Assembly: GCA_030390025.1 (NCBI GenBank) | Contig: CM059432.1 | Coordinates: forward strand, 63,800,001 to 63,864,000 | Reading direction: 5' to 3' | DNA length: 64,000 bases | DNA from: Squalus acanthias | Lineage: Eukaryota | In this document: piece by piece, positions 3,481 through 52,487 of the stretch | Layout: each line of letters starts with the position of its first letter | How positions within the stretch are numbered: the stretch's first letter is position 1 | The notes under the pieces: model-generated | Told to the model about the DNA's origin: nothing | The model's database searches: none | Seen by the model: only the letters and a program-made list of their open reading frames with translations | Program-made: the position numbers and the translations under genes

Positions 3481-4679
3481 GGGAGTGGGACTAGCTGAAG
3501 TGCTCTTGCAGAGAGCCGGCACGGGCTCGACGGGCCGAATGGCCTGCTCTGTGCTGTAACCATTCTATGATTCTAAATGCTCAGAATTCAGCTTGTATAG
3601 TGAAGAATGACTAACAAAAAAAAATATAGCAAAATCATTTAATAATGAAGGTTAAACAGCAGTGAGAAAAGGAGACGGCTTTGACTTGATCCAAAGGCTA
3701 ATGACTGAGTTTGAATAAGGAGAGTGACACTTGAGGTTAGCAGATGAATGAAAGGGAGAATGTTGTCTATGTAAAAAAAAGTGATAGCACAAATCTGTGC
3801 ATCCATGATAGAAGGAAGTTCCCAGGTGCTTGCTGACATATAAATCAAGATGATGGTTGGCAGTTGTGATTTGAACTACAAGAGCATCAAAAAGCCCATG
3901 CAAAAAGCCATATTTAGAAGACTTCATAACAAGTGCACTTCCAAGATGTGTGACAAATCGTGACCAGTTGAAACCCTAGTTTTGGATGAAGAGTTTAAAT
4001 TTTATATCCAGTCTGAGGATAAAGAAGCAAACCAAGATTAACACAGTTATAGAGTAAATACAACTGTCCACTGTCAAAGTCTTCTCAGTGTCAAACAATA
4101 CTACACCGATTCATTGCCCCTGCATGTGATTAGCAGAACAAATACGTTAACCATAATGTAACACTCATTTAACCCTCAAAATAAGTGGACTTGATCCAGT
4201 ATCATCCTCCCCGCCAATTCCTCTACAGAAAAAATATGAACAACTTCTCTAGATAGTAATTGCCTTAAGCGCTCCAGCGAAGAATGGTTAAATAATAACC
4301 AAACCCATAAGCATGTTTGGTATTGCTGGCTGGACTGAAAATTTCAAAGTATATAAAAAAGCCAAATTAATCCCAAAATCCCTACCCCTACTAGGAAATC
4401 TTTATGGATGATCCTTACCCAATGTAGCAAAGTGTCATTACATACTGAAGAACCCAATTGCACTCTATGATTTCCACTTAGCCTCACTCCTTCAACTGAA
4501 CACTTATTCAGCTCAGAAGGGTTTCCCATTTTGCTTATACCATTTTAAATTCAAAGTTTTATCACTATAAATCAGTAATATAACATTGCAAGTTAATTCT
4601 TTAAATCTACACAAAATAATCCACATTTTAGAGTAGAGAGCTGCGCTCAGTCTTATCTATCTAACCAATTATTATCTAT

Positions 4680-6880
4680 TATTAAGGACGTAGTAACAGG
4701 GCACTTGGAAAATCATAATATGATTAGGTAGAGTCAACATGGTTTTCTGAAATGTATTCGAGCTTTTTGAGGGTGTAACTAGCAGGATAGATAAGGGGGA
4801 AACCAGTGAATGTAATATATTTGGATTTTCAGAAGGCATTCAATAAAGTGCCACATAAGAGGTTGTTACACAAGATAGGGCTCATGGGATTGGGGGTAAT
4901 ATATTAGCATGGATTGAGGATTGGTTAACGGACAGAAAACAGAGAGTAGGAATAAATGGGTCATTTTTGGGATGGCAGGGTGTAACTAGTGGTGTGCCGC
5001 AAGGTGCAGTGCTTGGGCCTCAGCTATTTACAATCTATATCAATGACTTAGATGAGGGGATCTGAGTATAATGGGGGAAGATTTCAGTTGGTTGCGCCTC
5101 CCATTAGCGCCTTAAGGGGGCGCTAATGGGGCGCAAAGCAACTAGCGCCCGGGCGCGGTGATGTTTACGCAGCTCGCGAAATTAACTCAACATTTTGCGG
5201 CAGCGCTAAACACTACCGCCATGACCTACTGCACCAGCAGATCGTGACGTCAGTCGAGTGCGCAACACCCTGGTAGTGCCCCGGAGCGGATATTGAGTGG
5301 CGCCGCCTGCCGCTAGCAACGACAGGTTGAGGGGAGCGTTTTGCAGTCAGGAAGGGACTGGGGGAGCGCTATTTAAAGGTGACCGCTTCCTGCCTTTTTT
5401 TGTTGGTGACATTTTTGAACCACGCATTCTGAGAGAGAGAGAGACTTCTGTAGAGATTCAACGCTGTGTGAAGGAGTTTTGGGTACTGAGCAGCACTTTG
5501 CAGGTTCATTTTGATTTGCCCTTCCTTGTATCGATTTAGAAGAGATTGTGGGGGTTGCACTCTGAGCTCTTTCCCTGGTTCTCTCCATTGTTCTTTCCAG
5601 CAGATTTGATGTACAGGTCTCTCTAGGCCGAGATTCAAGGCTGCAATGAGCAGGATGTGGATGGAAAGCAAGATCAACCCTCCCCTTTGAGAACTGGCCG
5701 GCGCCATTGTGTCTGTGTTCCATTGCTGACTGACATCACATGAGCTTCGCCAGTGCTCTGAGTTAGCGCCTCGCTCCTAGGCCTTTGCGCCTTAAGACAG
5801 ATGTGTAGCACCTGATTTAGCACTCCAATCACCTCCAGGGGCGATAAAAGTCAAGTTTGCAGTCGGAGGCGATAATTAGCGGCAGGCGCTAATCTTTGCG
5901 CCCGGCCGATAATTGTGCCCCAAATGGGGCAATACTGAATTTCTCCCCCAATATATCCAAGTTTGCTGACGTTACAAAGCTAGGTGGGAAAGTAAGCTGT
6001 GAAGATGATGTAAGGAGGCTGAAAAGGGATATAGACTGGTTAACTGATTGGGCAAGAAGGTGGCAGATGGAGTATAATGCAGAGATGTGTGAAATTATTG
6101 ACTTCGGTAGAAAGAATGGAAAAGCAGTATATTTTTTAAAAGGGGAGAGACCAGTAAATGTTGGTATTCAAAGGGATTTGGGTGTCCTTGTACACGAATC
6201 ACTGAAAGTTAACGTGCAGGTACAGCAAGCAATTAGGAAGGCAAATGGTATGTTAGCCTTTATTGCAAAGGGGTTGGATTATAAGAGTAAGTAAGTCTTG
6301 CTGCAATTATATAGGGCCTTGGTGAGACCACACCGAGAGTACTGTGTACAGTTTTGGTTTCCTTACCTAAGAAAGGATATACTTGCCTTAGAGGGGGTGC
6401 AACGAAGGTTCACTAGATTGATTCCTGGGATGAGAGGGCTGTCCTATGGGGAGAGATTGAGTAGACTAGGCCTATCTTCTCTGGAGTTTAGAAGAATGAG
6501 AGGTGATCTCATTGAAACATTTAAAATTCTTAGAGGGCTTGACAAGGTAGATGCTGAGAGGCTATTTCCCCTGGCTGTAAAGTATAGAACTAAAGGTCAT
6601 AGTCTCAGGATAAGGGGTCGGCCATTTAGCATTGAGAGGAGGAGAAATTTCTTTACTCAGAGGGTTGTGAATCTTTGACATTCTCTTCCCCAGAGGGTTG
6701 TGGATGCTCAGTTGATGAGTATATTCAAGACTGAGATCGATAGATTTTTGGGTACTAAGGGAATCAAGGGATATGGGGACAGGGCGGGAAAGTGGAGTTG
6801 ATGTAGAAGATCAGCCATGATCTTATTGAATGGTGGAGCAGGCTCGAAGGGCTGTATGGCCTACTCCTGCTCCTATTTCT
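4680..6880 (+). mobile_element. 5'-truncated CR1 (HER1-like 3' end), split by a MITE at 5073-5949
   Basis: RT motifs run up to 5070 and resume at 5950 (ISKFADVTKLGG). 3' end gaatggtggagcaggctcgaagggctgtatggcctactcctgctcctatttctt. Confidence 0.92.
5073..5949. mobile_element. PIF/Harbinger-type MITE
   Basis: Imperfect TIRs GGGGGAAGATTTCAG / CTGAATTTCTCCCCC and a 3-bp TSD AAT (5070-72, 5950-52). Removing it restores the CR1 RT. Termini match MITE 14702-15474 in opposite orientation. Confidence 0.9.
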
Positions 6881-7464
6881 TAGCTTAACTGACATACAAT
6901 TTTTTTGCAAGTAATCATTCATTACCTTCAGCTGCTCAATTTGACTGGGGTCATTAGCTTGATGATTGTGACTCTTGCAATGATGATTTAGAGTAACACC
7001 CAATTAATAATTTCACCTAATTCACAGGAAATAAGGACAGTTACAGAGAAGGTTGAAAGACTATATTGATCTTTGGAAAGACATATTGTTACAGTTGAAA
7101 TTTATCATGTCTGTGACAGCAGAAATCTATATTACCTTTCATTATATTACTGTAAAATATTTTTGGCTGGCATTGCATTAAGACTTCTGTAAAGTATGGC
7201 ACAGATTGTGTTTTTACAATTGTGAGATTGATTAAAAAAATGTATTAATGAAGCCTAAAATCCTAAAATCTATCATATTGTACTTTGCTTGCACTCGGGA
7301 TTTATGTAATGTCATCAGACATCAACATGCTTGCCATAAACATGTATATTGTGCTACAGTCAAACCATACTGACATATTAGTGATTTTGAAAAATCTTAA
7401 GGCAGGAGCTGTTGACTCATTAATATTTTATTTATGCTGTGCATCAATAAATACATCAATAAAA

Positions 7465-8240
7465 AGAGGGATGAGAATAGCTGCTCGCAACATCAAGGCA
7501 GCATTTGACTAAATCCTAGTAAAATTGAGGTCATTGGGAGTGAAATGGAAAACCCTCCAGACATAGAATAATGGTCATGTTTCTCAGAGGCTAATTATTT
7601 AAGCCCCAGAATATCCATGCAGGAGTTGTTCAGGGCAGCAACTTGGCCCACTCTTCTTCAGCTGCTTTATCAATGACCTCTCCGTCATAAGATCAGAAGT
7701 TGGGTTGTTTGCAGATGATTCCACAATGTTCCCAACTTCTCCAGTAATGAAGCAGCCCATGCCAGTTAGTAAGACTTCGACAACATTCAGGCTTGGCCTG
7801 ATTAAGTCCAACAAGGAAAAGCCTAACCACTTCCCCCTGAACTTTAACAGCACCATCAATATTTTGGAGGTCACCATTGGATCAGAAGCTCACCTGGACC
7901 AGCTTTGGCTATAATCCGTACTTTCCACAGGATGCACTGCAGCAGCTTGCCAAGCTTACTTTAACAGCACCTCCCTTCCCCCAAACCTACACAAGGAGAA
8001 GGGCGAAAGCAGCATTGTCATTGGAACACTATTGCTTTCAAATTTCCCTCCAAGTCATACACGGTCCTGATTTGAGCATATATTGCCATTCCTTCATTAT
8101 TGCTGGATCAATATTGTGAAATTCCTCGCTGACACCACTGTGGGACCACCATCACTGCAAGGACTGCAGTGGTTTAAGAAGAATATCCACCACCAACAAC
8201 ACCTTCTGAAGGCAACTGGGATAGGCAATAAATGTCTTGT
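7465..8240 (+). mobile_element. Old, internally deleted 3' fragment of the second (tRNA-headed) LINE family
   Basis: catcaaggcagcatttgac, FADD, and ggataggcaataaatg match the 3' half of 35492-38755. Confidence 0.8.
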
Positions 8241-11529: not shown

Positions 11530-11711
11530 GGAGTGACTAACTCCAGCTCAAAACTGGCATTAATCTGAATGAAGCATTATTACTACACTGACAGAATTTA
11601 ATAGTACAGAAGAATTCAGCACCACAGAGTGCTTGTATTGGCTAAACCCAGCTTTTACTTAATGTACCAGGAGCAGGAGTAATGGGTAGTCCATCGTGCA
11701 GAGGTGATAAT

Positions 11712-13229
11712 GGTCCATATTTTCTGATGCCTACAGGTGTGTACGGGCTGTGTACACACTCGTAGGGACATCGGAAATGCCGGTTTCAGGCATGCGAAGG
11801 GCATGTGCTGAAAACCGGCATTTCTGATCTGTCAAGAATGCTCTTGACAGATCGGACGCCTGCCCGGGAGAAGGGCCTCTTCAGGGGGAGAGTTCCGCTT
11901 TCTGCAGAACCTCGGCCCGCTGAAAACCCTTAGAAATCTTACGCCTGGTAAAAGCAGGCGTAAGGCCTGCTTTTACCAGCATAATAGTTGAAAAAAAGTT
12001 TAAAACATTTTTTTCCCTCATTTATAATTTAAAAATACTTTTAAAAAAAGGTAAGTTTATTTTTAGCCCCGTAAAAAACTTTAATTATTTTTTTCAAAAA
12101 ATTAAATTTTTGTTTAAAATATTTAATTTGTTGGGCCAGAAATTCGGGTCTCCACGGGTGAGTACGCGCTGTGTACTCACCCGTAGACCCAACGAAAGTG
12201 TCGGTTTCGCACTGTGCATGCGCTGGAAACCGGAACTTCCGTTCCCTTGAAGGAAGGGGTTCGGAGGTCAAACGCGTGCGCCAGAGAGGCAGCGCGTACG
12301 CATCGAACTTCCACTTTTTTTTCAGGTTTCTCCGTGAGGGTAAGTCCCTAGCAGCTGCGCGGGGAAAAAGCAGGCGCAAGGCCTGCTTTTAACAAGGTAA
12401 GTGGTGAATTAAGTAAAATTTAAATTTTTTTTCCACAGGTTTATCTTTTTTAAATACTTTAAAGAAAAGTAAGTTTATTTTTAGCCCCGTTAAAAACTGT
12501 AATTAATTTTTTCAAAAATTTAAATTTTTGTTTAAAATAGTTAATTTATGTAATTTATAATTATTTAAAAAATGTGATTTAAAAAAAAATTATTTGAAGT
12601 TTTAGTTAGGTTTTGGGGCAGATCTCTATTCATAGATTTGACAGGTCTTCCTGTCAAATCTATGAATGGAGATTCCCTGCTCCGATTGGCTCCCCATGGC
12701 CCACATGATCCCAGGGGACGCTGCGAACTAGCTTCGCCCCTGGGACATGCGAGCACTGCACACCAGCAGCTGGAGGAGGCCCAGGATCGGAATCCCACGC
12801 GGGCCCACAGTACAATGGCAGGCGCGCTATGTAAGTGCAGGTCGGGGGCTTGCACCTGCAGGAAGCCTCCGACCCAAATTTCTGGCCCACTGTAATTTTA
12901 ACTCATTTTAAAAACATGATTTAAAAAAAAAATTATTTAATGTTTTACTGTGTTTTTGGGGTGATCTCCATTCATATATTTGACAGATCTATCTGTCAAA
13001 AGTATGAAGGGAGATTCCCTTCTACTATTGGCTGGCCTGGCCCACTTGATCTCAGAGACGCTTTCGAACTGCATGCGCCTCTGGAATACGTGGGCCCTGC
13101 GCATTTCGACTGTGGAGAGGCCCAGCATTGGAAGTGTCCGGACCTCGGGAGCCCTCAGGTAAGAGTGTAGATTTTTTTCTGATAGGAGGCATCCGCACGC
13201 AGGAAGCCTCCTATCGGAAATTACGGGCC
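11712..13229 (+). mobile_element. Hairpin-rich Harbinger-TIR MITE, copy 1 (hosts copy 2)
   Basis: Termini GGTCCATATTTTC / GAAATTACGGGCC, flanks AAT/ATT (1 mismatch). Collinear with 12133-12888 and 51725-52487. Confidence 0.8.
12133..12888 (+). mobile_element. Hairpin-rich Harbinger-TIR MITE, copy 2 (nested in copy 1)
   Basis: 18-bp TIR with 1 mismatch, GGGCCAGAAATTCGGGTC / GACCCAAATTTCTGGCCC. No clean TSD. Confidence 0.85.
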
Positions 13230-13544
13230 ATTATGTACATAAGTCACAGAACAAACTATTCCAGGCAGTAGAGAAACTGTAGTGAATAAGGAAGGTTATG
13301 CTTAGCAGGGAGGCTGTGATTGAAGTTGACCACTTGGTCCACAAACCTGTCGGGTTCAGGTCCAGCTTCCACACTATAGGTTTTGCTGTGCACCCACCCA
13401 CACACACTTTAGCACAGCACTGGAGAGGCAGTTAAAGTTTTACCAACTGGCCACTTCCTTTAAGTTAATAAGCAGCATTGGGTGTATGCATGTAATTGAG
13501 AGGTCGCACAACACCAGGTTATAGTCCAACAGTTTTATTTGAAA

Positions 13545-19983: not shown

Positions 19984-22450
19984 ATTGTGTTTGTGTTGAA
20001 CTTGGAACAACTAGGAGACACGAAGTCTGCTTACAACCAGCTGAGGTGACTTAAGAATTGAATAGAAGACCTTCGTAAGAATGGCATCAAATAGATACAT
20101 CTGTTACAACCGTTTTTTATGATAAGTTTTGAACACCTAAAGGTAGAGACACAAGTCTGCAAGCTAACAGCTGAACTGACAGTAAGAAAAGAAAGAAGTC
20201 AACAGAAATATAACTAGAGATAATTAGCTTACATCAGCAGGAAACGTCAAAGGATATACCACTGCAAAAAGGGTATAAAATATAGGACTTTCAAATAGGA
20301 GGACAGAAGTCGCTGGAAGGGGCAGAGCGATTCTCGGCAACAGAACCACTCTGTAAGCCTACAACTCTTTGAATCTCGGGTAATCAAAGGTATTTGATTT
20401 TGGTGGATATCCTGGATTAATACTAAGTAAGAAATGTAAAAATGTAATGAAGTTAAGATTTGAGAATAAGGATCTCTGAGAATAAGAATTGTAAGCTATT
20501 TGTTTTTAGAACTGTTAATGTTGCGACTGAATCACTAACTGTTAACTATATGTTGGTTCTTTAATAAATCTATATATTTTTAGAGTTGTCTCACATTGTA
20601 CTTCTGTATCAAACTCGCAAACTCAATCTCTGTACACTCTTTGGTGAGGAGGTGCAGAATTCTGGGGGAGTTTTCCGGACCCTCATAATATCCGGAAGGT
20701 TACAGTCTAGTTAAACTTATTAAAAGTGCTATCTGGAGGACAGTAACATCTTCAGGTCATTCCTTTCCTTTAGGGAGACATAGTCTGGACATTTAGACCC
20801 AATTAAGCGTCTTCTAGGATTCGGCTATCTCTAACTTTAGTTGAAGGTGAACGTCTGGCGAATACGCCTGATCCGGGGTAGCCCGAAAAGGGCTAGGACT
20901 AGTAATTATCCCTTCAGGGTGGCGGCACAGTGGTATACAGTCGGAAAGCAGTGGCCCTGGGAGTCCTCAACATTGACTCCGGACCGCATGAAGTCTCATG
21001 GCTTCAGGTTAAGTATGGGCAAGGAAACCTCCTGCTGATTACCACCTACCGCCCTCCATCAGCTGATGAATCAGTACTCATCAATGTTAAACACCACTTG
21101 GAAGAAGCACTGAGAGTAGCAAGGGCACAGAATGTACTCTGGGTGGAGTACTTCAATGTCCATCACCAAGAGTGGCTCGGTAGCACCACTGCTGGCCTAG
21201 TCCTGAAGGACATAACTGCCAGTCTGGGCCTGCGACAGGTGGTGAGAGAACCAACACGAGGGAAAAACCTACTTGACCTCGTCCTCACCAATCTACCTGT
21301 CGCAGATGCATCTGTCCATGACAGTATTGGTAGCAGTAACCACCGCACAGTCATTGTGGAGATGAATTCCCGTCTTCACATTGAGGACACCCTCCATCGT
21401 GTTGTGTGGCATTACCACCGTGCTAAATGGGATACATTCAGAACAGATCTAGCAGCTCAAAACTGGGCATCCATGAGGCACTGTGGGCCAACAGAAGCAG
21501 CAAAGTTGTATTCCACCACAATCTGTAACCTCATGGCCTGGCATATCCCTCACTCTACCATTATCACCAAGCCAGGGGACCAACCCTGGTTCAATAAGGA
21601 GTGTAGAAGAGCATGCCAGGAGCAGCACCAGGCATACCTAAAAATGAGGTGCCAACCTGGAGAAGCTACAACACAGGACTACATGCATGCTAAAAAGCGG
21701 GCGGAAGCAGCATGCTACAGACAGGGCTAAGCGATCCCACAATCAACGGATCAGATCAAAGCTCTGCATTCCTGCCACATCCAGTCGTGAATGGTGGTGG
21801 ACCATTAAACAACTAATGGAAGGAGGAGGCTCCATGAACGTCCCCATCCTCAATGATGGTGGAGCCCAGCACGTGAGTGCAAAAGACAAGGCTGAAACGT
21901 TTGCAACCATCTTCAGCCAGAAGTGCCGAGTGGATGATCCATATCGGCCTCCTCATGAGGTTGCCACCTTCACAGAAGCCAGTCTTCAGCCAATTCGATT
22001 CACTGCACGTGATATCAAGAAACAGCTCAGCGCACTGGATACAGCAATGTCTATGGGCCCTGACAACATCCCGGCTATTGTGCTCCAGAACTAACCGCGC
22101 CTCTAGCCAAGCTGTTCCAGTACAGCTACAACACTGGCATCTATCCGACAATGTGGAAAACTGCCCAGGTATGTCCTGTCCACAAAATGCAGGACAAATC
22201 CAATCCGGCCAATTACCACCCCATCAGTCTACTCTCAATCATCAGCAAAGTGATGGAAGGTGTCATCGACAGTGCTATCAAGCGGCACTTACTCACCAAT
22301 AACCTGCTCACTGATGCCCAGTTTGGGTTCCGCCAAGACCACTCAGCTCCCGACCTCATTACAGCCTTGGTTCAAACATGGACAAAGAAGCTGAATTCCA
22401 GAGGTGAGGTGAGAGTGACTGCCCTTGACATCAAGGCAGCATTTGACTGA

Positions 22451-22548
22451 GAACATAAGAACATAAGAAATAGGAGCAGGAGTAGGCCAATCGGCCCCTT
22501 GAGCCTGCTCCGCCATTCAATAAGATCATGGCTGATCTGATCCTAACC
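22451..22548 (-). mobile_element. Very short CR1/HE1-type 3' end inserted in the LINE RT
   Basis: gaacataagaacataagaaataggagcaggagtaggcc... is the reverse complement of the CR1 3' end seen at 6810-6880. Confidence 0.88.
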
Positions 22549-24889
22549 GCCAATCTACTATCTACTATCACAGAACCATCTCCTGCATCTAACAGAATTG
22601 CACACACGAAATAGGAGTGTGGCATCAAGGAGCCCTAGTAAAATTGAAGTCAATGTGAACCAGGAGAAAAACTCTCCACTGGCTGGAGTCATACCTAGCA
22701 CGAAGAAAGATGGTTGTGGTGATTGAAGGTCAATCATCTCAGCCCCAGGACATCGCTGCAGGAGTTCCTCAGGACAGTGTCCTAAGCCCAACCATCTTCA
22801 GCTGCTTCATCAATGACCTTCCCTCCAACATAAGGTCAGAAATGGGGATGTTCGCTGATGACTGCACAGTGTTCAGTGCCATTCACAACTCCTCAGATAA
22901 TGAAGCAGTCCATGCCCGCATGTAACAAGACCTGGACGACATTCAGGCTTGGGCTGATAAGTGGCAGGTAACATTCACGCCACAGAAGTTCCAGGCAATG
23001 ACTATCTCCAACAAGCGACAGTCCAACCACCTCCCCTTGACATTAAACGGTATTACCATAGCCGAATCCCCCACTATCAACATCCTGGGGGTTACCATTG
23101 ACCAGAAACTTAACTGGACCAGCCACATAAATATTGTGGCAACAAGAGCAGGTCAGAGGCTAGGTATTCTGCGCCGAGTGTCTCACCTCCTGACTCCCCA
23201 AAGCCTTTCCACCATCTGCAAGGCACAAGTAAGGAGTGTGATGAAATAGTCTCCATTTGCCTGGATGAGTGCAGCTCCAACAACACTCAAGAAGCTCGAC
23301 ACCATCCAGGACAAAGCAGCCCACTTGATTGGCACCCCATCTATCACCTTAAACATTCACTTCCTCCACCATTGGCGTACCGTGGCTGCAGTGTGTACCA
23401 TCTACAAGATGCACTGCAGCAACTCGCCAAGGCTTCTTCGGCAGCACCTCCCAAACCCACGACCTCTTCCATCTAGAAGGTCAAGGGAAGCAGGCACATG
23501 GGAACACCACCACCTCCAGGTTCCGCTCCAAGTCACACATCTTCCTGACTTAAAAGTATAACGCCAATCCTTCATCGTCGCTGGGTCAAAATCCTGGAAC
23601 TCCCTACCTAACAGCACTGTGGGAGGACCTTCACCACACGGACTGCAGCGGTTGAAGAAGGCGGATCACCACCACCTTCTCAAGGGCAATTAGGGATGGG
23701 CAATAAATGCTGGCCTTGCCAGCGACGCCCACATCCTATAAAAACGAATGAATAAAAAAAACCTCAATGCAGGGCAAGGATTGCATTGACTGTGGCTGTG
23801 AAGGTGACCGTGGCTCGTAATGTTTATGTACCTTGCTCCTTCCAGGTTGCTGCTAGAGATGTAAGCAATATCTCTCAGTTTGCTGCATAAGGGAGGTCAC
23901 TGAGGCCCTTTATACACAGAGGGATAGGTTCATCTCATTCCCTCTTGCCAGAGACAAGCAGGCAGAGTGAGCACGAGGGTTTGCATGGATTGCAAGCTTC
24001 CCCGTGGTGCTGGGTGCCACAGACTGCATGCACATTGCCTTGCATGCGCCTCATGTGAACTCTGCCATTTTCATGATCCGAAAGGGGTTCCACTCCCTCA
24101 ATGTGCAGCTGGTGTGTGACCACAGGCTGTGCATCATGCAGGTGAATGCCCATTATCCTGGCAGTGGTCACGATTCCTTCATTCTGCGGCAGCCCTCTAT
24201 GCTACCTTTGTTTGAACTACCACGGTAAATCAAAGGCTGGCTATTGGGTGACAACGGTTATCCACTCATGACATGGCTCATGACTCCGGCCCAGAACCCA
24301 TGCACACGTGCAGAACAGGCATACAATGAGAGCCATGCCCTCACAAGGAATATTATAGAGCACACCATCGGCATCCGTGAGCAATGCTTCCACTGCCTGG
24401 ACCGCTCAGGAAGAGCCCTGTAGTACTCACCTGAGTGGGTATCAAGATTTGTGGTAGTATGCTGCATACTACACAACCTGGCCATTATGAGGGAACATCC
24501 TTTGCCACCACCTATCAGGCGAGAAGCTGAGGAGCAGAAGCACAAGGAAGAGGAGAAGGAAGAAGTGGAGGAGAAGGAGGAGGAAGTGCAACAGAGAGTG
24601 GAGGAATAGGAAGAGGAAGGGAGGCTACAATGTAGACAGCCCCTTTCTGCCCGGGCTCTATGTGATGGAATCCTTCATGAGCGATACCAATAACCTCAAC
24701 CACACCTCCCCACTCACCAACATACCCATGCTCCTTACCTTTGCTCTATCACTGACCATCACGTCGTCCTCTTTCCGACAACACAAAAATAAAAACCACC
24801 AGAAAATACACATTTCAATCCAAATTTATCAATTCAATCATTATCTAATGCAAACAAAAATAAACTAATCACCCTTGTGCATTCCCTTA

Positions 24890-26742
24890 GTGCCTATCTT
24901 CCATGTGCCTTTGCCTCTCCTAGTGCTCCTACGAGGTGCTTCCCCAGTGGCTGCAGCAAGGGTGGTGGAAGGCTGTTGACCTTCAGTTGAGAAGACTACA
25001 GATGGCCTTGGAGGGTGACCTCGAGCAGCTCTGGGCCTAGAAGGCCTGGCTTCAGACTACACCATATGCCTGGGCTGCAGCAGTCTGGGCTGGCTGGTTG
25101 ACAGGCAACAGCAAGGGCACTGATATAGTGGCAGGGGTGGAAGCAGGAATGATGTCAGCCTGAGAGAGGACAGCAGGTTCGTACTCCATGGGAGCCACTG
25201 CCACTCTCCCAGAGCAGCGCCTCAGCAATCCTACTGATCTGTTGGAGAACAGATTGATGGACTGCTGTGATGCCCTGGAAGCTCCTGTGAACAGTGGTAA
25301 CCAAAGCCATGATGGCAGCAGTCTGAGCTTCCACTGCAGCACTCAGACCTTTGATGAAAGGTGTTTGTGCTGCAATGCAAGCTGTGACATTGGCCATCAG
25401 ATGCTGCTGCATGGTGGGTTCCACAAGTGTGCTGATGTAGCTCTGTGAAAAGCCTTGTGCCAAGTTGGTGCTGGACTCCTCCATGCTCCCTAACAATGAG
25501 CGCAGGCTTTCTGGCAGGGTTTGCAGTGCACAAAACATTTGGTTATGCACACCCATCAGCCTTCTTCTGTATCCTGGCCCATCAATATCCTCATCTGACC
25601 CCTCTGCAGCAGAACTAGTAAGCGACCTCGCCCTCCAGTGAGCTGGCACCTGCACTATCCTTTCCCCCTGCCCTGGCTCCTGCGCACTTGTGCCCAGTGT
25701 CTCACCACTTGCAGATCCGTCCTCTATCCTAGCCTCTATAATACGCACAGTGTCAGTCTCTGAGTTGGTGCTGTATGTGTAGGATCCAGTGACGGTGTCT
25801 CTTCATCTTCACTATCTTCTTCCTCTTCCTCCACTGACTGTGAAGGCTCCAGTTTTGGGGTATCTGAAATGAAAAATGGACAAGGGTTGGGTTGTGGTGA
25901 GGGGAGAGGAGAAAGTAAGGAGTGCTTGCTTACACCATTTGCAGCTTCTAAGTTAGAAGAGATTGAGGGAAGAGGGAGAAGTGGGATGAGAGAGGGAGGA
26001 TTAGATATGTGAATACCCTCATCATCAATCGCTTCAATGCCACCAGTGGCCACGGCCTCAGCGATACCCCTTCCCATGATGGCCAGCACTGTCTCCTCCA
26101 TGGGGGTTAAAACATGCAGGTGCGCTTGTCCTCCTCCAATTCTTTGCTGCTGCCTCCTGTTATGTGCCACCTTCCCCTGCAAGGAAGAGTAAAGTGTGTG
26201 TCTTGCAATATGTTTGGGTGATGTGGCTGTCTTGGTTGAATAGCTGCCAGTGTGAGCTGTGATTTGTGGGTGTGAGGCTTGCAACTAAGTGTGTGAGGGT
26301 GAGGTAAAATGTGTGAGGGTGAGTGCTAGGTGTGTGAGGGTGAGGTAAAGCATATGAATTTTAGGGTTGAGTCATGATTGATAGAGATTGCTGGTAGGTG
26401 GGTGATGGGGGTGTAGTGAATTGAGCAGTGGATGAGGCGAGTGGTGCAGTTGGTAGGATATGCCATTTGAAGATGAACTAACTCACCTTGACAACTCATG
26501 TAAGATCATTAAACTTCTTCCTGAACTGAATCCATGTTCTTGGAGCTACACTCCTGCCATTGACCTCCACCACTACTTCTTTCCCAATGTCTCCTGAGCA
26601 TGTGTCTGCAGGGGCTCCTGCCCCCCCCGCCCCCCGCCACCTGCGGATACAGGACATCTCACCTCCTTTCCACCTCTTCCACTAAGGCCTCCAATGTATT
26701 ATTGGTAAACCTTGGTGCACGATCCCTCACATGTTCAGCCAT
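24890..26742 (-). pseudogene. Harbinger Myb/SANT-like DNA-binding gene (3 exons), decayed
   Basis: MAEHVRDRAPRFT..LEALVEEVERR, IQFRKKFNDL, then acidic and coiled-coil-like exons (ORFs 25736..26284, 25155..25748). Confidence 0.82.
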
Positions 26743-27167
26743 TCTTCAATCTTTTACAGCACAGTTTCAGTTCACAAAGGACTCCCACCACTTCTTGCAG
26801 CCACAATGCACCTCCCCTTTAAGAGTTGCAGGCTGCCTTTAAGTTGCGCTAGGCACTTGCGATATCGGGCCCCCTGCTGATGCGTGCAGCCAGTGAACAG
26901 TACGGGTAGCGCTGGCTGCACGCAACAATCTTGTAAAACAGCAGGCATCACGAATTTACTGTGTTGCCTGCAATACAATGAACGGGCGCGGGTTAATCGC
27001 ACAATATGATCCCTGTGGCCGTTTTCAGATCTTATCCAATTTAACCTCCATGGTTCCCAAAGCCCTCCACCACTGGGATTTTCTTCACGCATACCTGGGT
27101 CTGTTGTAGACTAATTGATAGCAATTGATTGCTATGATTAGTCAACAACTGTATTATCATTGTATCA

Positions 27168-28856
27168 TAGATACATAGATACATAGAAGATAGGAGCAGG
27201 AGTAGGCCATCCGGCCCTTCGAGCCTGCTCCGCCATTTAATGAGATCATGGCTGATCCTCCAATTCAGTATCCCGTCCCCGCCTTCTCTCCGTAACCCTT
27301 AACCCCTTTTGCCTGTAGAAATATATCTAATTCCCTCTTAAATATATTTAATGAGCTGGCGTACACTGCCCTCTGTGGCAATGAGTTCCACAGGTTCACC
27401 ACCCTCTGAGTGAAGAAATTCCCCCTCATTTCTGTCCTAAATGGTTTAGCCCTTATCCTTAAATTATGTCCTCTAGTTCTGTTCTCACCCGCCAAGGGAA
27501 ACATTCCTTCTGCATCTAGTCTGTCTAGACCTGTCAGAATTTTATACACTTCTATGAGGTCCCCTCTCAATCTTCTAAACTCCAGTGTGTACATCCCTAA
27601 ACTACATAGTCTCTCCTCATAGGTCAATCCCGCCATTCCTGGTATCAGCCTGGTGAATCGCTGCTGCACCCCCTCCATGGCAAGAACATCTTTCCTCAGA
27701 TGAGGCGACCAAAACTGTACACAGTACTCGAGCTGTGGTCTCACCAGTGCCCTGTACAGCTGCAGCAAGGTATCCCTGTTCCTGTATTCCAACCCTTTTG
27801 CTATGAAGGCCAGCATACCGTTTGCCTTCTTGATCGCCTGTTGCACCTGCATGCTCGCCTTCAGTGACTGGTGTACAAGAACACCCAGGTCTCTCTGTAC
27901 TTCCCCCTCTCCCAATTTATTGCCATTTAAATAATAATTTGCCCTCCCGTTCCTGCACCCAAGGTGGATAACTTCGCACTTGTCCACATTATAGTGCATC
28001 TGCCATTTATCCGCCCAATCACCCAGTCTGTCCAAATCGCTCTGGAGCTTCCTGGTCTCCTCCTCTGAGCCCACCCCTCCTCCTAGTTTAGTGTCGTCTG
28101 CAAATTTGGAAATGCTGCATCCGACTCCCTGATCCAGGTCATTAATGTAAATTGTGAACAGCTGGGGACCCAGGACAGATCCCTGTGGTACCCCACTTGT
28201 TACTGCCAGCCATTCAGAAAATGAGCCGTTTATTCCAACTCTCTGTTTTCTATCTGACAGCCAGTTCTCTATCCACGTCAATACTTTCCCCTTTATCCCA
28301 TGAGCTTCAATTTTCCCTGCTAATCTTTTATGTGGGACCTTATCGAAGGCCTTTTGGAAGTCCAGGTACACCACATCTACTGGCTCTCCCCCATCTATTT
28401 TATCAGTTACTCCCTCAAAAAATTCCAATAGATTAGTCAAGCACGATTTACCCTTTGTAAATCCATGTTGACTCTGTCCTATCCTGTCCCCATTTGCTAA
28501 GTGCTCCGCTATTTCATCCTTAATGATGGACTCCAGCATTTTGCCCACAACTGATGTAAGGCTTACAGGTCTGTAATTACCTGCTTTTTCCCTACCCCCC
28601 TTTTTGAATAGTGGGGTAACGTTAGCTACCCTCCAATCCATGGGCACTGTTCCCGAGTCTAATGAATTCTGAAAAATCATACTTAGTGCATCCGCTATCT
28701 CAAGGGCCACCTCCTTCAGCACCCTAGGATGCATGTTATCAGGCCCTGGGGATTTGTCCGCCTTCAATCCCTTTAGCTTCCTTAACACCATATCCTTAGA
28801 GATATTGACTTGCGTCAGTTCCTCCTTTGCAAATGTCCCTATTTTTCCCGATATCC
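27168..28856 (-). mobile_element. Young 5'-truncated CR1
   Basis: Uninterrupted RT ORF, 8-bp tail repeats (catagata), TATCAT at both junctions. It sits within another LINE 3' UTR remnant. Confidence 0.95.
27265..28791 (-). CDS. CR1 ORF2 reverse transcriptase, 508-aa open C-terminal part (5'-truncated, probably not expressed)
   Basis: [50 protein letters not shown]. Confidence 0.9.
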   Translation of the reverse strand: MVLRKLKGLKADKSPGPDNMHPRVLKEVALEIADALSMIFQNSLDSGTVPMDWRVANVTPLFKKGGREKAGNYRPVSLTSVVGKMLESIIKDEIAEHLANGDRIGQSQHGFTKGKSCLTNLLEFFEGVTDKIDGGEPVDVVYLDFQKAFDKVPHKRLAGKIEAHGIKGKVLTWIENWLSDRKQRVGINGSFSEWLAVTSGVPQGSVLGPQLFTIYINDLDQGVGCSISKFADDTKLGGGVGSEEETRKLQSDLDRLGDWADKWQMHYNVDKCEVIHLGCRNGRANYYLNGNKLGEGEVQRDLGVLVHQSLKASMQVQQAIKKANGMLAFIAKGLEYRNRDTLLQLYRALVRPQLEYCVQFWSPHLRKDVLAMEGVQQRFTRLIPGMAGLTYEERLCSLGMYTLEFRRLRGDLIEVYKILTGLDRLDAEGMFPLAGENRTRGHNLRIRAKPFRTEMRGNFFTQRVVNLWNSLPQRAVYASSLNIFKRELDIFLQAKGVKGYGEKAGTGY

Positions 28857-28944
28857 CATATCATGTGACTACAAAGGCGGTAGAAAGCGAACTAGATGAA
28901 CTTTGATCTTTTATCGTCTAGCAATTCCTATGTTCCTAGAATTG

Positions 28945-35491: not shown

Positions 35492-38400
35492 TAGGAACGG
35501 TAGCATTGTGGTTATGTTATTGGACTAGTAATCCAGAAGCCTGGACAAATGATCCAAAGGCGTGAGTTCAAATCCCACCACGGCAGCTGGGGAATTTAAA
35601 CTCAGTTAATTAAATGAATCTGGAATAAAAAGCTAGTATCAGTAATGGTGACAATGAACCTATTGGATTGTCGTAAAAACCCATCTGGTTCACTAATGTT
35701 CTTTAGGGAAGGAAATCTGCCGTCCTTACCTGATCTGGCCTCTATGTGACTCCAGACCCACAGCAATGTGGTTGACTCTTAACTGCCCTCTGAAATGGCC
35801 CAGCAAGTCACTCAGTTGTAAAAAACCGCTACGAAACAAAATAAGCATAAAACCGGACTGACCACCCGGCATCAACCTCGGCACCGGCTACGGACACAGC
35901 AACAGCCCAGCCCAGTCGACCCTGCAAAGTCCTCCTCACCAACATCTGGGGACTTGTGCCAAAATTGGGAGAACTGTCCCACAGACTAGTCAAGCAACAG
36001 CCTGACATAGTCATACTCACAAAACCATACCTTTCAGCCAATGTCCCAAAATCCTCCATCACCATCCCTGGGTATGTCCTGTTCCACCGGCAGGACAGAC
36101 CCAGCAGGGGTGGCGGCACAGTGGTATACAGTCGGGAAGGATTGGCCCTGGGAGTCCTCAATATTGACTCCGGACCCCATGAAGTCTCATGGTTTCAGGT
36201 CAAGCATGGGCAAGGAAACCTCCTGCTGATTACCACCTACCGCCCTCCATCAGCTGATGAATCAGTACTCCACCATGTTGAACACCACTTGGAAGAATAC
36301 TGAGAGTAGCAAGGGCACAGAATGTACTCTGGGTGGGGGACTTCAATGTCCATCACCAAGAGTGGCTCGGTAGCACCACTACTGACTGAGCTAGCCAAGT
36401 CCTGAAGGACATAGCTGCCAGTCTGGGCCTGCGACAGGTGGTGAGAGAACCAACACGAGGGAAAAAGCTACTTGACCTCGTCCTCACCAATCTACCTGTC
36501 GCAGATTCATCTGTCCATGACAGCATTGGTAGCAGTGACCAGCGCACAGTCATTGTGGAGATGAAGTCCCATCTTCACATTGAGGACACCCTCCATCGTG
36601 TTGTGTGGCACTACCACCGTGCTAAATGGGATAGATTCAGAACAGATCTAGCAGCTCAAAACTGGACATCGATGAGCCATCAGCAGCAGCAGAATTGTAT
36701 TCCAGCACAATCTGTAACCTCATGGCCTGGCATATACCTCACTTTACCATTACCATCAAGCTAGGGGACCAACCCTGGTTCAATAAGGTGTGTAGAAGAG
36801 CATGCCAGGAGCAGCACCAGGTGTACCTAAAAATTTGGTGCCAACCTGGGGAAGCTGCAACACAGGACTACATGCATGCGAAAAAGCGGAAGCAGCATGC
36901 TATAGACAGAGCTACGCGATCCCACAACCAACGGATCAGATCAAAGCTCTGCAGTCCTGCCACATCCAGTCGTGAATGGTGGTGGACCATTAAACAACTA
37001 ACGGGAGGAGGAGTCTCCATGAATATCCCCATCTTCAATGATGGTGGAGCCCAGCACGTGAGTGCAAAAGGTCAAAGCTGAAGCGTTTGCAAGCATCTTC
37101 AGCCAGAAGTGCCGAGTGGATGATTCATATCGGATTCCTCCTGAGGTCCCCACCACCACAGAAGCCAGTCTTCAGCCAATTCGATTCACTCCACGTGATA
37201 TCAAGAAACGGCTGAGCACACTGGATACAGCAAAGGCTATGGGCCCCGACAACATCCCGGCTGTCGTGCTGAAGACTTGTACTCCAGAACTAGCCACGCC
37301 TCTAGCCAAGCTGTTCCAGTACAGCTATAACACTGGCATCTATCTGACAATGTGGAAAGCTGCCCAGATATGTCCTGTCCACTAAAAGTAGGACAAATGC
37401 AATCCGGCCAATCACCACCCCATCAGTCTACTCTTAATCATCAGCAAAGTGATGGAAGGTGTTGTCGACAGTGTTACCAAGCAGCACTTACTCACCAATA
37501 ACCTGCTCACTGATGCCCAGTTTGGGTTCCACCAGGACCACTCGGCTCCAGACCGCATGGACAAAGGAGCTGAATTCCAGAGGTGAGGTGAGAGTGACTG
37601 CCCTTGACTTCAAGGCAGCATTTGACATGTGGCATCAAGGAGCCCTAGTAAAACTGAAGTCACTGGGAATCGGGGGGAAAATGCTCCACTGGCTGGAGTC
37701 ATACCTAGCGCAAAGGAAGATGGTTGTGGTTGTTGAGGTCAATCATCTCAGCCCCAGGACGTCGCTGCACTAGTTCCTCAGGGCAGTGTCCTAGGCCCAA
37801 CCATCTTCAGCTGCGTCATCAATGACCTACCCTCCATTATAAGGTCAGAAGTGGGGATGTTCGCTGATGACTGCACAGTATTTAGTGTTATTCGCAACTC
37901 CTCAGATAATGAAGCAGTCTATGCCCGCATGCAGCAAGACCTGGACGGCTTGGGCTGATAAGTGGCAGGTATCATTCGCGCTACACAAGGGCCAGGCAAT
38001 GACTATCTCCAACAAGCGAGCGTCTAACCATCACCCCTTGACATTTAATGGCTTTACCATCGTCGAATCCTCCACCATCAATATCCTAGGGGTCACCATT
38101 GACCAGAAACTTAACTGGACCAGCCACATAAATACTGTGGCAACAAGAGCAGGTCAGAGGCTGGGTATTCTGCGGCGAGTGTCTCACTTCCGGACTCCCC
38201 AAAGCCTTTCCACCATCTACTAGGCACAAGTCAGGAATGTGATGGAATACTCTCCACTTGCCTGGATGAGTGCAGCTCCAACAACACTCAAGAAGCTCGA
38301 CACCATCAAAGACAAAGCAGCCTGCTTGATTGGCACTCCATCCACCACCTTAAACATTCACTCCCTCCACCACCGGTGTACCGTGGCTGCAGTGTGTACC

Positions 38401-38755
38401 ATCTACAAGATGCACTGCAGCAACTCGCCAAGGCTTCTTCGGCAGCACCTCCCAAACCCGCGACCTCTACCACCTAGAAGGACAAGGGCAGCAGGCACAT
38501 GGGAACACCACCACCTCCAAGTTCCCCTTCAAGTCACACACTATCCTGACTTGGAAGTAGATCGCCGTTCCTTCATCGTCGCTGGGTCAAAATCCTGGAA
38601 CTCCCTCCCTAACAGCACTGTGGGAGTACCTTCACCACACGGAGTGCAGTGGTTCAAGAAGGCGGCTCACCATCACCTTCTCAAGGGCAACTAGGGATGG
38701 GCAATAAATGCTGGCCTTGCCAGCAATGCCCACATCCCATGAACTAATAATTTTT
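35492..38755 (+). mobile_element. Full-length uninterrupted (but mutated) tRNA-headed APE-RT LINE, ~3.26 kb
   Basis: Same head, UTR, APE (KVLLTNIWGL, PDIVILT, GDFNVHH, SD), RT and 3' end as 18017-23759. No room for an ORF1. Confidence 0.93.
35494..35585 (+). promoter_or_regulatory. tRNA-Ser-like Pol III promoter head
   Basis: A-box-like TAGCATTGTGG, arm TGGA-CTAGTAA-TCCA, long variable region, B-box AGTTCAAATCC. Confidence 0.7.
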
Positions 38756-40209
38756 TAAAATCGCCCCCTTTATCTTCAGTAATTGTTAGCAGCTATATGG
38801 GCATTAGTAAAATTTGTTTAAAGTTAATAATCTCAAATAACTCATCCATAAAGTTCCCTGGGTATCATAGGTAAGCAAGTCTGGATTATGGACTACAGTC
38901 TGACAAGGGCAAATTCTCACTTTTTACTCACCTTTTTTGATAAAATGAACATCAATAGAAATGTTGTCATCAAACATGAATTTTGTGAAACATCTATCAT
39001 TCAGTCCATCCAACTGGGCCTATCAGGAGTGCTTCTGGTGGAATTCCTGGGGAGGTCCGGGAATATCCCCTGACAGGCTGGGTTACAAAAAAAATATGGT
39101 CAATAACAGTGCTTATATGGCTTGTCATGACGACAGAGAATGAATTTAGAAATGGCAAATTAAGCATATTTTACATACGTTCGCACTTGTTTTTTCACTG
39201 CACTCGCAACATAGTAACTATAGATTATACTGACTGATTTCCTGTGGTGTTGCTTATGGGTTATCTGGGTCTGAAGCACCGTCATGAAGATTAGCTGGTA
39301 GCCTGACTTTTCCCTTTGTCAGATATACCTTGTGGGAAGTAAATAGGCACATCCGGAGGCCAGGTGGAGGCCAATTGATCTTGCTGTTGAACATGTCTCT
39401 AGACTGGCAGCTGCTTGACTCTCATTGGCAGCAGGGGAGGGTCTCTCTAAATCCGTAAAACAACAGTAAATGACTGCAATTCTTTCTCTTTTTGCTTATT
39501 TTTATAAAGATTTTTCATTTTTTGTGGTTTAAACTGAGTGTGACATCTGACTTGTGACAGTTGCACTAGAAAGAAGGATCCAGAAAATCCAGGGAAGGAC
39601 CTTTTGGCAAATTTTGGGCAGAGTGGAATTTCTGATTTCTCTGTGGATATGTTCCTGACCCTGTCCCAAAATTTCAGAGTCAGGGGTACTTCTGTTGTCC
39701 TGGTGGGTACATGCACCATTTATGGCACTGATTACAGCATTGCCAGAACAAGTAACAAAAAATGGTGTCACTTTCTCTGCAGGCCATTTTTCCAGAAGCA
39801 ATTCGATTGTTCTGTGATTCATTGCTTTTGGGAAACAGGCCTTTTAAAGTTTAAGGGGGAAAAATTTGGTATTGCCCATTTTGGGGCGCTAACATGGCCT
39901 GGGCTCTAACTTTAACGCCTGCTGCTAATTAGCACTGGCGATCATGAAATTCAGTTTTAGCAGCCCAAGTGTGAAGTGGAGCGCTAAATGAAACGCTAAA
40001 CACTCCTCTTAGGGCGCTAATGTCAGAGAGTGGGGCGCAACTGCAGAACGCTACTCAAGCTCAGGCACTGTCAATTACAAGTACTCAGACAGACTGTCGC
40101 CTTCCAGTTCTTAAAGGGGAGGGTCAATCATGCTGCACAGCTTCACTCTGATCATTGCTGCTTGTGAACTGGGCCTGCAAGGAGGTGCAATCCATCAACC
40201 ACAAATCTC

Positions 40210-42060: not shown

Positions 42061-42402
42061 GGGGGAATTCAAAGGGGAGGGAGATCATTGAGGAAGGGTG
42101 AGTAAATAATACATTATTAGCAAATGGGGGGAGTGTGAGTAAATAATTTGATGTCTTTGTAAATATATTGTTGAGTTTGGTAACAAATAGGTCAGCTTGC
42201 TAAGAAAGAGTTGTGTTTGTTGATAAATTGTTGTGTTTGTTTATTATTGGTTGTGTTTCATAAGAGAGAGTTGTGCACGATAATAAATAGTTAATTCGAC
42301 GTAGCACATTTTGTGATGTTTCTCATTGACCTTTGCTCGATGATAGGGGCTGCAAGCTGGATGTAATGATGTGATTGTGCTGTGCAAAGGCCATGTGCTA
42401 TC

Positions 42403-43540
42403 TCATTTATTGGAAGCGCTGTCTAATGAGGCGATCACGAACAGCCCTTGTAGAAGCAAGATTGAGTGCCTCCCTCCTACGTTGCTGCTGCTTCTCCTCC
42501 TCTTCATCCTCTTTCTCCACCTCTTCCTCCTCCTGTCCCTATTCCTTCTCCTGAGGTGGTCCTGCAATCCTGGTGGCAATGGCTGGGCCCTCAGAATAGC
42601 CAGGTTGTGCAGCATGCAGCACACAACTATGAAAAGGGAGACTTGATTAAGGGAGTACTGCAGGACTCCTCCAGAGCGGTCAAGGCAGTGGAACCATTGC
42701 TTTAGCACCCTGATAGTTTGTTCGATCAGGTTCCTGGTGGCGGTATGGCTGTCATTGTATGCGTGCTGAGCAGGAGTGTTGGGGTTGCGGAGGGGTGTCA
42801 TCAGCCAGGTGATGAGTGATAACCCTGGTCTCTGAGCAGCCAGCCGTGAGCTTCATGTGATGGGTGGATGAATGCATCGTGGCTGCTGCCAGGATAGCGG
42901 GCATTGAAGGCGAGGATCTGTGGTCTGTGGTCGCACACCAACTGAATGTTCAGAGAGTGGTAGCCTTTGCCGTTACAGAAGACCTCTGCATTGTGATGAG
43001 GTGCCCGCAATGCCACATGGGTGCAGTCAATGGTGCCCTGAACCATGGGGAAGCCCGCTATCCTTGCAAAGCCACATGAGCGTTCATCCTGTTTCTCTCT
43101 GGTCATGGGGAATGAGATGTACTCCCTTCTCCTTCTGTACAGAGCATCTGTGACCTCCCTGATACTGCAACGGCAAACTGAGAAACGTTTGCAATATCCC
43201 CTGTTGAAGCCTGGAAGGAGCCACTGGTGCAGAAATTGAGAGCGACTGTGACCTTCACTGCCACTGAGAGAGACGTCCTGGTCCTGATCTGAAGCTGGAG
43301 CTCTGGCTGCAGGAGGTGGCAGAGCTCTGTGACCACCTCCTTGCTGAAGCGGAGCCTTCTGAGGCACTGCTCCTCTGACAGATGAATGTAGGAGAAGTGC
43401 TCCTGGAATACCCTGGATGGGTAAGGTCTCCTGTTGAGAGCCCTGTTGGCCCTCCTCCCTCTGGCCACGTTTTGCAATATTCTTCTCTGCCTCTGCCAGT
43501 GACACTGGAGGGCGAGGTCCAGTGCCAGTACAGCCCCCAT
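42403..43540 (-). pseudogene. Harbinger DDE transposase (HARBI1-like), frameshifted
   Basis: [65 protein letters not shown]. Confidence 0.92.
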
Positions 43541-47945: not shown

Positions 47946-48140
47946 AGACACTAAAGGAATGCACAAACGTGAATAGTTGATAGTCATTGTGATTGGATTT
48001 TGATAAATTTATGAATTTTGTTTGGAATGTGTGTTTTGTGGTGGCTCTCATTTCAGCTTTGTGCCCAGGAAGACACTGTGATGTTGGGTGACAGAGGGAT
48101 GGTATGATGGGAAAGTGGTGAGAAATGGGGATCTGGGGTT

Positions 48141-51212: not shown

Positions 51213-51724
51213 CTCTGTGTTACATCTACTGCATTTCTTTCATCTATCTAATCAGTCACCTCCTCAAAACATTCTATTAATTTTGTCTCAAATTCTCCAT
51301 TCAAAGGGGTCGATTATAACTTGTCAAAATTGGCATTAATGGGATAGTAACAGAATGGGCTTGTTAGGCTTATTAACCATTAACGCTGATGGTTGGCCCA
51401 GGCAGTAAGGCCCTTTTAATATACAGTTCAGGATCCTCTGTAAATCGGACCCTGATTGCCATTTTATGATAGAACTGGTCAGAGTGTGCACCCTGCACTC
51501 TTTGTGCTGGCTTGAATCCGGCAAACTGCATCGCGATGCATCTCCGTATCACATTCGTCCACGGTTATTAATGCTTCTAACATATCAATTGTGTTTTCAA
51601 TGCTTTGTGCATTCACGTACAAGCCACTCAATCCTTATTCTGATGTTTTGAAACCTTGACCATTTTTCTTTTCCCTGGTTTTCTCATTTTGTGTTTTGAT
51701 CTCTCTTGCTCCTTCTATAACATT

Positions 51725-52487
51725 GGCCCGAAAATTAGACCTAATACGCGAGAGTACGCACTGTGTACTCTCGCGTATTAGGTCCCGAATTGCCGGTTTC
51801 CTGCATGCACTGCGCATGCGCGGGAAACCGGCACTTCGTTTATTGCAAAGGGGGCGGTTCCTAAGTGAACCACGTGCGCGCTACAGGCTGCGCGCACGCA
51901 GTGCACTTAGTTTTTTTTTCAGGTTTGAACGCGCAGGTAAGTGTTGAAGATTTTACACATAAAGAAAGCAGGCGTAGGACCCCCTTTTAACAAGGTAAGT
52001 AGTTAATTAAGTGTTATTTTAATTTTTTGTCAACAGGTTTATCTTTTGTAGAGACTTTAAAAAAGGTAAGTTTATTTTTATAACTTTTAAAAAGATTTTA
52101 AATTTTTTCAAAAATTTTATTTTTTGTTTAAAGTGGTTAATTTATTTAACTATAGTTATTTTATTAATGTGATGGCTTTTTAAAAAAATTAATTGAGGTT
52201 TAGCTGTTCTTTTGGGGGCTTGTAGTATTCATAGCTTTGACAGCCCTTGCTGCCAAAACTATGAATGAAAGATGGTGTGCTGCCATTGGCTCTAACTAAA
52301 TCACGTGATCCCAGAGCTCGCACGAACTAATTGCGCCTCTGGGACACGCAAGCACTGCACGGTTGCAACAGGGAGAGGCCCTGAAACTGAAGTTCGTGTG
52401 GGCCCCAAACAAAAAGGTAGGCGCGGAGTGCGATATCGCGGGGAATCCTTACCCCCGCGGGAACCATCGATGTTTAATTTCTGGGCC
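51725..52487 (+). mobile_element. Hairpin-rich Harbinger-TIR MITE, copy 3
   Basis: TIR GGCCCGAAAATTA / TAATTTCTGGGCC, exact TSD ATT (51722-24, 52488-90). Confidence 0.9.

Follow-up and report, generated by a model that had tools for sequence, protein, structure and literature searches.

Three diverged copies of a non-coding element in the 64,000-nt window (the whole stretch of DNA analysed here) carry stem loops at corresponding positions, with stem sequences that differ from copy to copy. The locus raises the question of the level at which pairing is maintained, i.e., in a transcribed RNA, in a single-stranded DNA intermediate, or in double-stranded DNA. The first-pass annotation had described the copies as MITEs mobilized by Harbinger, with covarying hairpins in their interior. 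Its coordinates, the nesting of one copy in another (12133-12888 within 11712-13229), the TIRs and every stem that it quoted were all found in the sequence (Table 1). The six hairpin stretches of the window have DNA folding z-scores of -5.4 to -11.9, and none of 200 shuffled sequences folded as well. The elements are of uniform length, about 740-766 bp (~760 bp), with TIRs that start with G, and no open reading frame of 200 aa or more lies over the MITE copies. The observation is real and unusual, and most likely reflects a DNA-level property of a known type of element, not a new structured RNA.

Table 1. Positions in the window of the MITE copies, their target triplets, stem loops (H) and splice-donor-like motifs.
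Feature	Copy	Position	Strand	Other positions and remarks
MITE, subfamily A (oldest sampled)	A	11712..13229	+	Interrupted by the nested copy at 12130-12891
MITE, subfamily B	B	12133..12888	+	Nested inside the A copy; TIRs about 12133-12150 and 12871-12888
MITE, subfamily C	C	51725..52487	+	Young; relatives 1.2% from consensus
Target triplets	A	Left AAT 11709..11711	+	Right ATT 13230-13232; non-identical
Target triplets	B	Left GTT 12130..12132	+	Right ACT 12889-12891
Target-site duplication	C	Left ATT 51722..51724	+	Identical on the right at 52488-52490
H1	A	11730..11766		Core also in autonomous elements
H1	B	12146..12190		Core 12154-12184 plus lineage-specific outer stem
H1	C	51738..51784		20-bp perfect stem
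H2	A	11770..11828		B about 12191-12244, C 51786-51838; nearly invariant, also in autonomous elements
A/I-specific hairpin	A	11823..11856		Second pair of TTGACAG motifs
H4	A	11945..11979		B 12366-12390; lost from D onward; not in sampled autonomous elements
H6, right-half hairpin	B	12622..12673		A 12964-13015, C 52227-52266; MITE-specific
H7, CCCAG stem	B	12709..12745		A about 13050-13085, C 52309-52344
H8, adjoining the right TIR	A	13176..13220		B about 12840-12874; remodelled in later subfamilies
Three GGTAAG splice-donor-like motifs	C	51936..52070	+	At 51936, 51994 and 52065

Family size and age of subfamilies

A first search of the genome (3.7 Gb, eukaryotic) gave 8301, 3332 and 4332 candidates for the three window copies. 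An exact 34-letter pattern of the right-half hairpin H6 puts the copy number genome-wide at 14,715 or more (control 0), a minimum figure, since copies of the youngest lineage have ceased to fit the H6 pattern. Nine subfamily consensuses (A, I, H, B, D, E, F, C and G) were built from 24-29 best matches each, with three truncated subfamily-A matches left out. A tenth subfamily, J, was sampled from 40 loci and stands apart from the nine full consensuses.

CpG decay is highest in the oldest subfamilies (A 0.163, I 0.150, H 0.154, B 0.137) and lower in the later ones (D 0.090, E 0.082, F 0.046, C 0.057, G 0.030), figures that best-match sampling pushes toward low ages; among relatives of the window A copy it is 0.16. 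This decay puts the subfamilies in time order, and the nesting of B in A agrees. Subfamily J is placed last by its position in the tree, its CpG figure of 0.057 being a mixture of sub-lineages. Further subfamilies exist beyond the 10 sampled.

Within the subfamily alignments haplotypes are mosaic, a sign that active copies often recombine or undergo conversion. Because masters recombine, the order of the steps presented below is one that we infer, and mosaics may be among the intermediates. Lineage substitutions are clustered and rich in transversions (63%, vs 52% of private non-CpG changes), with C<>G changes forming 21% of lineage substitutions vs 9% of private non-CpG changes. Hypervariable spacers adjoin the TIRs (element positions 13-22, 53-62 and 640-760) in MITE and autonomous lineages alike. 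At one locus (L322, G000:C1:3279349-3283723) three young copies occupy a 3-kb stretch and seem to have been duplicated together, and a similar trio is found near C1:3288267-3290877.

Autonomous partners and classification

The genome holds 63,886 candidates for PF13359, and most of the 150 that were scored are open frames without stops. About 1.3 kb upstream of the DDE core, 28 of the 30 top loci match the left end of the MITE and one more does so weakly; the two without a left-end match show an internal stretch only, or no match. When 20 loci were extended to 8 kb, seven matched the MITE at both ends, with lengths of 4.5-4.7 kb, and five represented a second Harbinger family. Intact partners (~4.6 kb) have two convergent genes, the transposase on the + strand and a second gene on the - strand. 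A Pfam scan identified the transposase as DDE_Tnp_4 and, in locus L160 only, the second open reading frame as Myb_DNA-bind_5 (E=4e-13). No PDB relative of the transposase was detected at E 0.01. Mobilization of the MITE by Harbinger is thus borne out, as autonomous partners with transposase and Myb genes have both ends in common with it.

The H1 core, H2 and the H3 core are common to the MITE and the sampled partners, and H4, H6, H7 and H8 are missing from the latter. MITE ends are more structured than partner ends: in single copies of I, H, B, D, E and F the right end folds at -63 to -71 kcal/mol, vs -39 to -50 kcal/mol in seven partners of similar GC, with MITE subfamilies A, C and G at -48 to -59. 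Some MITE-specific stems may have been inherited from old partners, the sample having contained no partners that match A or I. In one autonomous element (L124 / L163, G000:C1120) the first 60 bases are those of MITE subfamily C, including the 20-bp stem, and ends appear to have been exchanged between MITE and partner.

The organization is close to that of PIF/Harbinger elements and Tourist-like MITEs such as zebrafish Harbinger3_DR/Harbinger3N_DR and rice Ping/mPing, with the same two convergent genes, short TIRs, a target-site duplication (TSD) of 3 bp with an extended target preference, and subterminal inverted motifs, as outlined in the available accounts (PMC2836001, PMC9710019). The MITE is built of the element's two ends, as are Harbinger3N_DR and mPing. 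However, the target consensus is A-W-T and not T-W-A, the TSD that defines the strict PIF/Harbinger group in the available part of PMC4482050; the element is therefore filed under the Harbinger/PHIS superfamily, outside the strict TWA group. Pangu, of the PHIS superfamily, resembles it in an A-N-T TSD and GG-starting TIRs, but the same part of PMC4482050 gives Pangu second open reading frames without a known motif and lists no vertebrate host, whereas the second frame here is Myb/SANT. The element is a Harbinger-superfamily MITE with an A-W-T target, from which the strict TWA group and Pangu differ by one feature each. Unlike Harbinger/Tourist MITEs, it has long internal stems (up to 23 bp) that are missing from the sampled partners and that show stepwise compensatory changes. 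A literature search of incomplete coverage found no report of stepwise compensatory evolution of internal MITE stems.

Target-site duplications

Flanking triplets were compared in 231 copies, from which 63 with inexact termini, including all 24 of subfamily I, were set aside. Left and right triplets are identical in 91 of the remaining 168. The form A-N-T is present on both sides in 121 copies (loci L002-L359), and in 42 of these the middle base differs (p about 1e-27 against 4% decay); 7 of 21 in subfamily J differ likewise. That the duplication is of 3 bp is indicated by homologous empty sites, with a 3-nt overlap in 41 of 49 copies. In 11 mismatched cases with an empty site, the foreign triplet is on the left in four, on the right in four, and unclear in three.

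We infer that the mismatched TSDs are strands of the donor TSD carried along with the excised element. In piggyBac, left and right triplets also differ, with the triplet of the empty site on one side and the canonical triplet on the other, and such asymmetry has been explained by mismatch repair of carried overhangs (available part of PMC8717057). Non-canonical piggyBac insertions amount to about 2% in the same account, vs 42 of 121 A-N-T sites here, a frequency seen because the middle base is free. Staggered TSD cleavage has been proposed for mPing (PMC4561436, in the part available). The non-identical TSDs are genomic support for such cleavage, which for Harbinger-type elements had so far been proposed from yeast assays. 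No report of asymmetric TSDs in natural Harbinger insertions was found in a literature search of incomplete coverage.

Stem loops gained, lost and kept

The proposal that five to six stem loops persist at the same positions holds for the H1 core, H2, H6 and H7, which are present in all nine consensuses, but not for H3, H4, H8 and the outer H1 stem, which were gained and lost. Outer H1 stems were said to be different but paired. They are indeed paired in several subfamilies, but in differing registers, and are missing from D, E, G and J. An outer stem of 6 bp or more is found in 6 of the 9 MITE consensuses vs 1 of 17 autonomous haplotypes. A G.T pair next to the H1 loop is present in all nine consensuses, and has become G-C in the youngest autonomous elements.

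H2 contains motifs that we take to be NRF1-like and ETS-like. A recurrent deletion of 11 nt in H2 (element positions 77-87), between short direct repeats, is found in several MITE and autonomous lineages, e.g., L137, L153, L159, L169 and half of subfamily H. The A/I-specific hairpin gives way to a different hairpin in later subfamilies (51861-51910 in copy C).

For H6, the description of three different pairs at one position is overstated, since hardly any copy other than A has the A-T pair seen at 12971-13008: among 26 subfamily-A relatives this position is G.T in 12, A-T in one and G.A in one, and the other 12 fall outside the pattern. A change that did occur along the lineage is from G-C to C-G via a C.C mismatch, which is present in 15 of 23 F copies. 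In the youngest lineage the seemingly fixed TGACAG core of H6, presumably MEIS/TGIF-like, has become TCACAG, and this speaks against a single fixed protein motif at H6; a fixed TGACAG site was thus ruled out as the reason for H6.

A guess that hairpins had grown over time was reversed by the age ladder. The oldest subfamilies are the most structured, with 165 stem pairs in A vs 65-89 in D-G. A 7-mer at the inner side of the TIR has 4-5 copies in A, I and H, and from H to I it changes in concert at three homologous sites, two of them in the same orientation.

GGTAAG and poly-T CAG, which we take to be splice-donor-like and acceptor-like motifs, were also noted. In addition to the donor-like motifs of copy C (Table 1), GGTAAG is found at window positions 12339 and 12396, with 3-4 such motifs on the + strand accompanied by the acceptor-like motif. 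These motifs are kept from subfamily H to J, with only 1-2 in A and I, and the motif at 51936 aligns with one upstream of the transposase open reading frame in B-like autonomous elements. Ordinary splicing was rejected as the spacings are too short ("exons" of about 14 and 30 nt, and a 40-nt "intron").

Covariation and stepwise re-pairing

Stem sequences were claimed to change on both arms while remaining paired. Among 63 pairs that persist in four stems across the nine consensuses, 12 vary on both arms vs 3.8 expected, but 44 are simply invariant, with the remaining seven variable on one side. Nine of the 12 re-pair, showing Watson-Crick pairs of two kinds (p=0.004 against 1/3, a value that is not exact phylogenetically), and two of the 12 adjoin an alignment gap in H7. 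Overall, 93.8% and 94.4% of cells are paired, a level reached by none of 500 shuffles and far above slid controls, with relatedness uncorrected; the count of pairs with two-sided change was not above the shuffle control (149 and 148 of 500). Complementarity rather than sequence is therefore kept at several positions, as the annotation had held, beyond chance when kinship is left uncorrected. An example is an H7 pair in which 99 of the 100 first-listed sites, among 6,199, are paired (33 G-C, 66 C-G, and a single C.C).

An intermediate was sampled for nine switches, seven of which pass through a non-wobble mismatch (T·T, A·A, C·C, G·G or A·G). T.T is found in 20 of 24 I copies and A.A in 23 of 24 F copies. 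C.C is present in H1 of the autonomous elements L160 and L175, in H6 (the 15 F copies above) and in H7 (1 of 100 sites), G.G in H6 of 3 of 38 young copies, and A.G in H8 (2 of 26). Both transition-type switches have G.T on the + strand as their intermediate. The clearest series is in H6, where G-C/C.A is followed by G.G/C.A (2 copies), C-G/C.A (3 copies) and C-G/C-G (most J). Here two mismatches 4 nt apart were repaired separately, the left arm changing first and the right arm later. Mismatch states were thus amplified, some of them in whole subfamilies, and then repaired one base at a time. Unrepaired mismatches can be long-lived, with G.A persisting through four subfamilies and C.A through three. 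These long-lived mismatches, together with the loss of whole stems over time, show that pairing is not essential.

Along the ladder, stem sites changed at 0.38 per site vs 1.14 elsewhere. Inserted copies decay neutrally in their stems, where divergence vs that elsewhere is 5.2% vs 6.5% at CpG, 1.39% vs 1.25% at other G/C, and 0.73% vs 1.05% at A/T positions. Eight double changes were found in inserted copies vs about six expected from the rate of single changes, and 7 of 25 changes fixed a mismatch (7 of 15 without one shared variant), which is not clearly above chance; both counts are of low power. Thus the transposing lineage regains symmetry, whereas inserted copies do not detectably do so. 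The mobile lineage keeps its complementarity, most likely at the level of DNA.

A possible role for DNA symmetry

Judged from the sequence comparisons, the internal inverted repeats have been repeatedly broken and re-paired probably, though far from certainly, because their symmetry as DNA is selected in transposing copies. The time-ordered ladder of subfamilies, with its stepwise re-pairing through mismatches, and the neutral decay after insertion speak for this. An arm could carry a change for some time, and a subsequent change in the opposite arm would be favoured if it brought symmetry back. As whole stems have been lost over time, the benefit, if any, would be quantitative.

In the left stems H1-H3, which the autonomous element also has, putative sites bound by the Myb partner or by promoter factors of the host would be arranged as inverted pairs. 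The stems confined to the MITE (H6, H7, outer H1, H4 and H8) may raise mobility, either by adding dyad sites or as extrudable hairpin or cruciform DNA. It is possible, if doubtful, that these stems act as extra dyad protein sites. The left stems common with the partners, the concerted change of the TIR-inner 7-mer, and the short inverted motif pairs at the ends of a sister family are consistent with protein sites. Near-matches to what we take to be the 9-bp Myb motif of Harbinger3_DR cluster in H1-H3. A 9-bp subterminal Myb site has been described in Harbinger3_DR (PMC9710019, in the part available).

A role of the MITE-specific stems as extrudable DNA is suggested more tentatively. H6 and H7 flip in sequence yet stay paired, and the hypervariable spacers that flank H1 pair in six of nine MITE consensuses vs one of 17 partner haplotypes. 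A wider proposal, also on the unlikely side, is that hairpin or cruciform shape may itself be a selected cis-determinant of amplification, with pairing restored base by base and with mismatched TSDs as a record of carried donor bases. Stem sequences would keep changing, possibly to escape sequence-specific silencing by the host, and RNA-like covariation would then arise in a DNA element.

Neutral homogenization, RNA and single-stranded DNA

A rather unlikely account that nevertheless carries weight is neutral. One arm would be copied onto the other, by template switching or transient-hairpin repair, during replication or post-excision gap repair and without benefit, and lineages that transpose often would gather more such events. 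The strand symmetry of the mismatches, the clustered and transversion-rich lineage substitutions, the recurrent H2 deletion, and the origin of some outer stems through runs of adjacent one-arm changes are as expected, and in bacteria template switching perfects inverted repeats in a strand-symmetric manner, a process known as quasi-palindrome correction (PMC5941160, in the part available). However, repairs here are of single bases, go in either direction, and follow amplified mismatch states; those 4 nt apart in H6 went in opposite directions without co-conversion. The annotation's alternative of strand-symmetric, DNA-level maintenance of palindromes fits best, but the H6 repairs do not resemble simple template switching of tracts. 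Ongoing template switching was not detected in inserted copies, where neither double changes nor mismatch-fixing changes provided a clear signal at the low power available. In addition, the excess of outer H1 stems in MITEs over autonomous haplotypes is found despite the same machinery, with the limit that it represents only about three independent gains.

Conservation of a structured non-coding RNA or small-RNA precursor, transcribed from an inherited transposase promoter, is improbable, and the signs favouring RNA are weak. The MITE left end does correspond to the region upstream of the transposase frame, with its donor-like motifs on the + strand, G.T was used on the + strand in both transition-type switches, and one-arm changes in copies give G.T 272 vs A.C 218 (cells not independent). 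The G.T beside the H1 loop in all nine consensuses could also be read as a sign of RNA, one weakened by its replacement with G-C in young autonomous elements. A G-U vs A-C asymmetry had been suggested as a means of assigning a strand, but the mismatches in consensus stems (G.T 7, A.C 12, other 24) show no G.U excess, and the G.T share of 7/43 is that expected at random. Seven of the nine sampled intermediates are non-wobble; the excess of transversion switches equals the lineage background of 63% transversions and so indicates the absence of a G.U filter, nothing more. Folding z-scores are alike on both strands. Rfam gave no match at gathering threshold in the window; five sub-threshold matches were found in four loci, two of them over the MITE at E 0.67 and 0.97, and these were taken as chance. 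Together with the neutral decay of inserted copies, these results do not bear out the earlier suggestion of an RNA. It should also be noted that a lineage of DNA transposons propagates without an RNA copy, and an RNA fold would have to bring an indirect benefit in cis.

The annotation had also raised a single-stranded intermediate of transposition; hairpin folding in such DNA, of the kind found with IS200/IS605 or Helitron-type elements, is very improbable: the DNA hairpins are very stable and H1 and H8 could compete with TIR pairing, but TIRs with a true 3-bp duplication represent ordinary double-stranded cut-and-paste anatomy, and the enzyme is a transposase of the DDE_Tnp_4 type that has a Myb partner; Pfam reported neither an HUH nor a helicase domain in the five open reading frames scanned.

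The rise of some MITEs to tens of thousands of copies still calls for an explanation. This family offers at least 10 subfamilies in a dated ladder, partner genes that are intact, and intermediates with natural single mismatches, so that what internal palindromes do is directly testable, as paired, broken and compensated variants of the stems already exist in the genome. A caution is that strong covariation can arise in a DNA element that shows no sign of an RNA fold.

Other elements

The second, sister Harbinger family (L168, L170-L173) is also intact, with a length of about 4 kb, TIRs starting with GGGGG and the inverted motif pairs at both ends. Related to it are decayed Harbinger-type elements in the window, with transposase and Myb fragments, at about 23760-26550, 39850-43470, 46200-49150 and 61800-64000. 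At about 4000-8000 of locus L162, open reading frames interrupt an autonomous element; these have a retroviral look by eye, and are putatively integrase-like and envelope-like. The window is otherwise rich in repeats, and fragments of LINE-type endonuclease/reverse transcriptase with their repeats are found at 20906-23740, 27161-28860 and 36108-38743.
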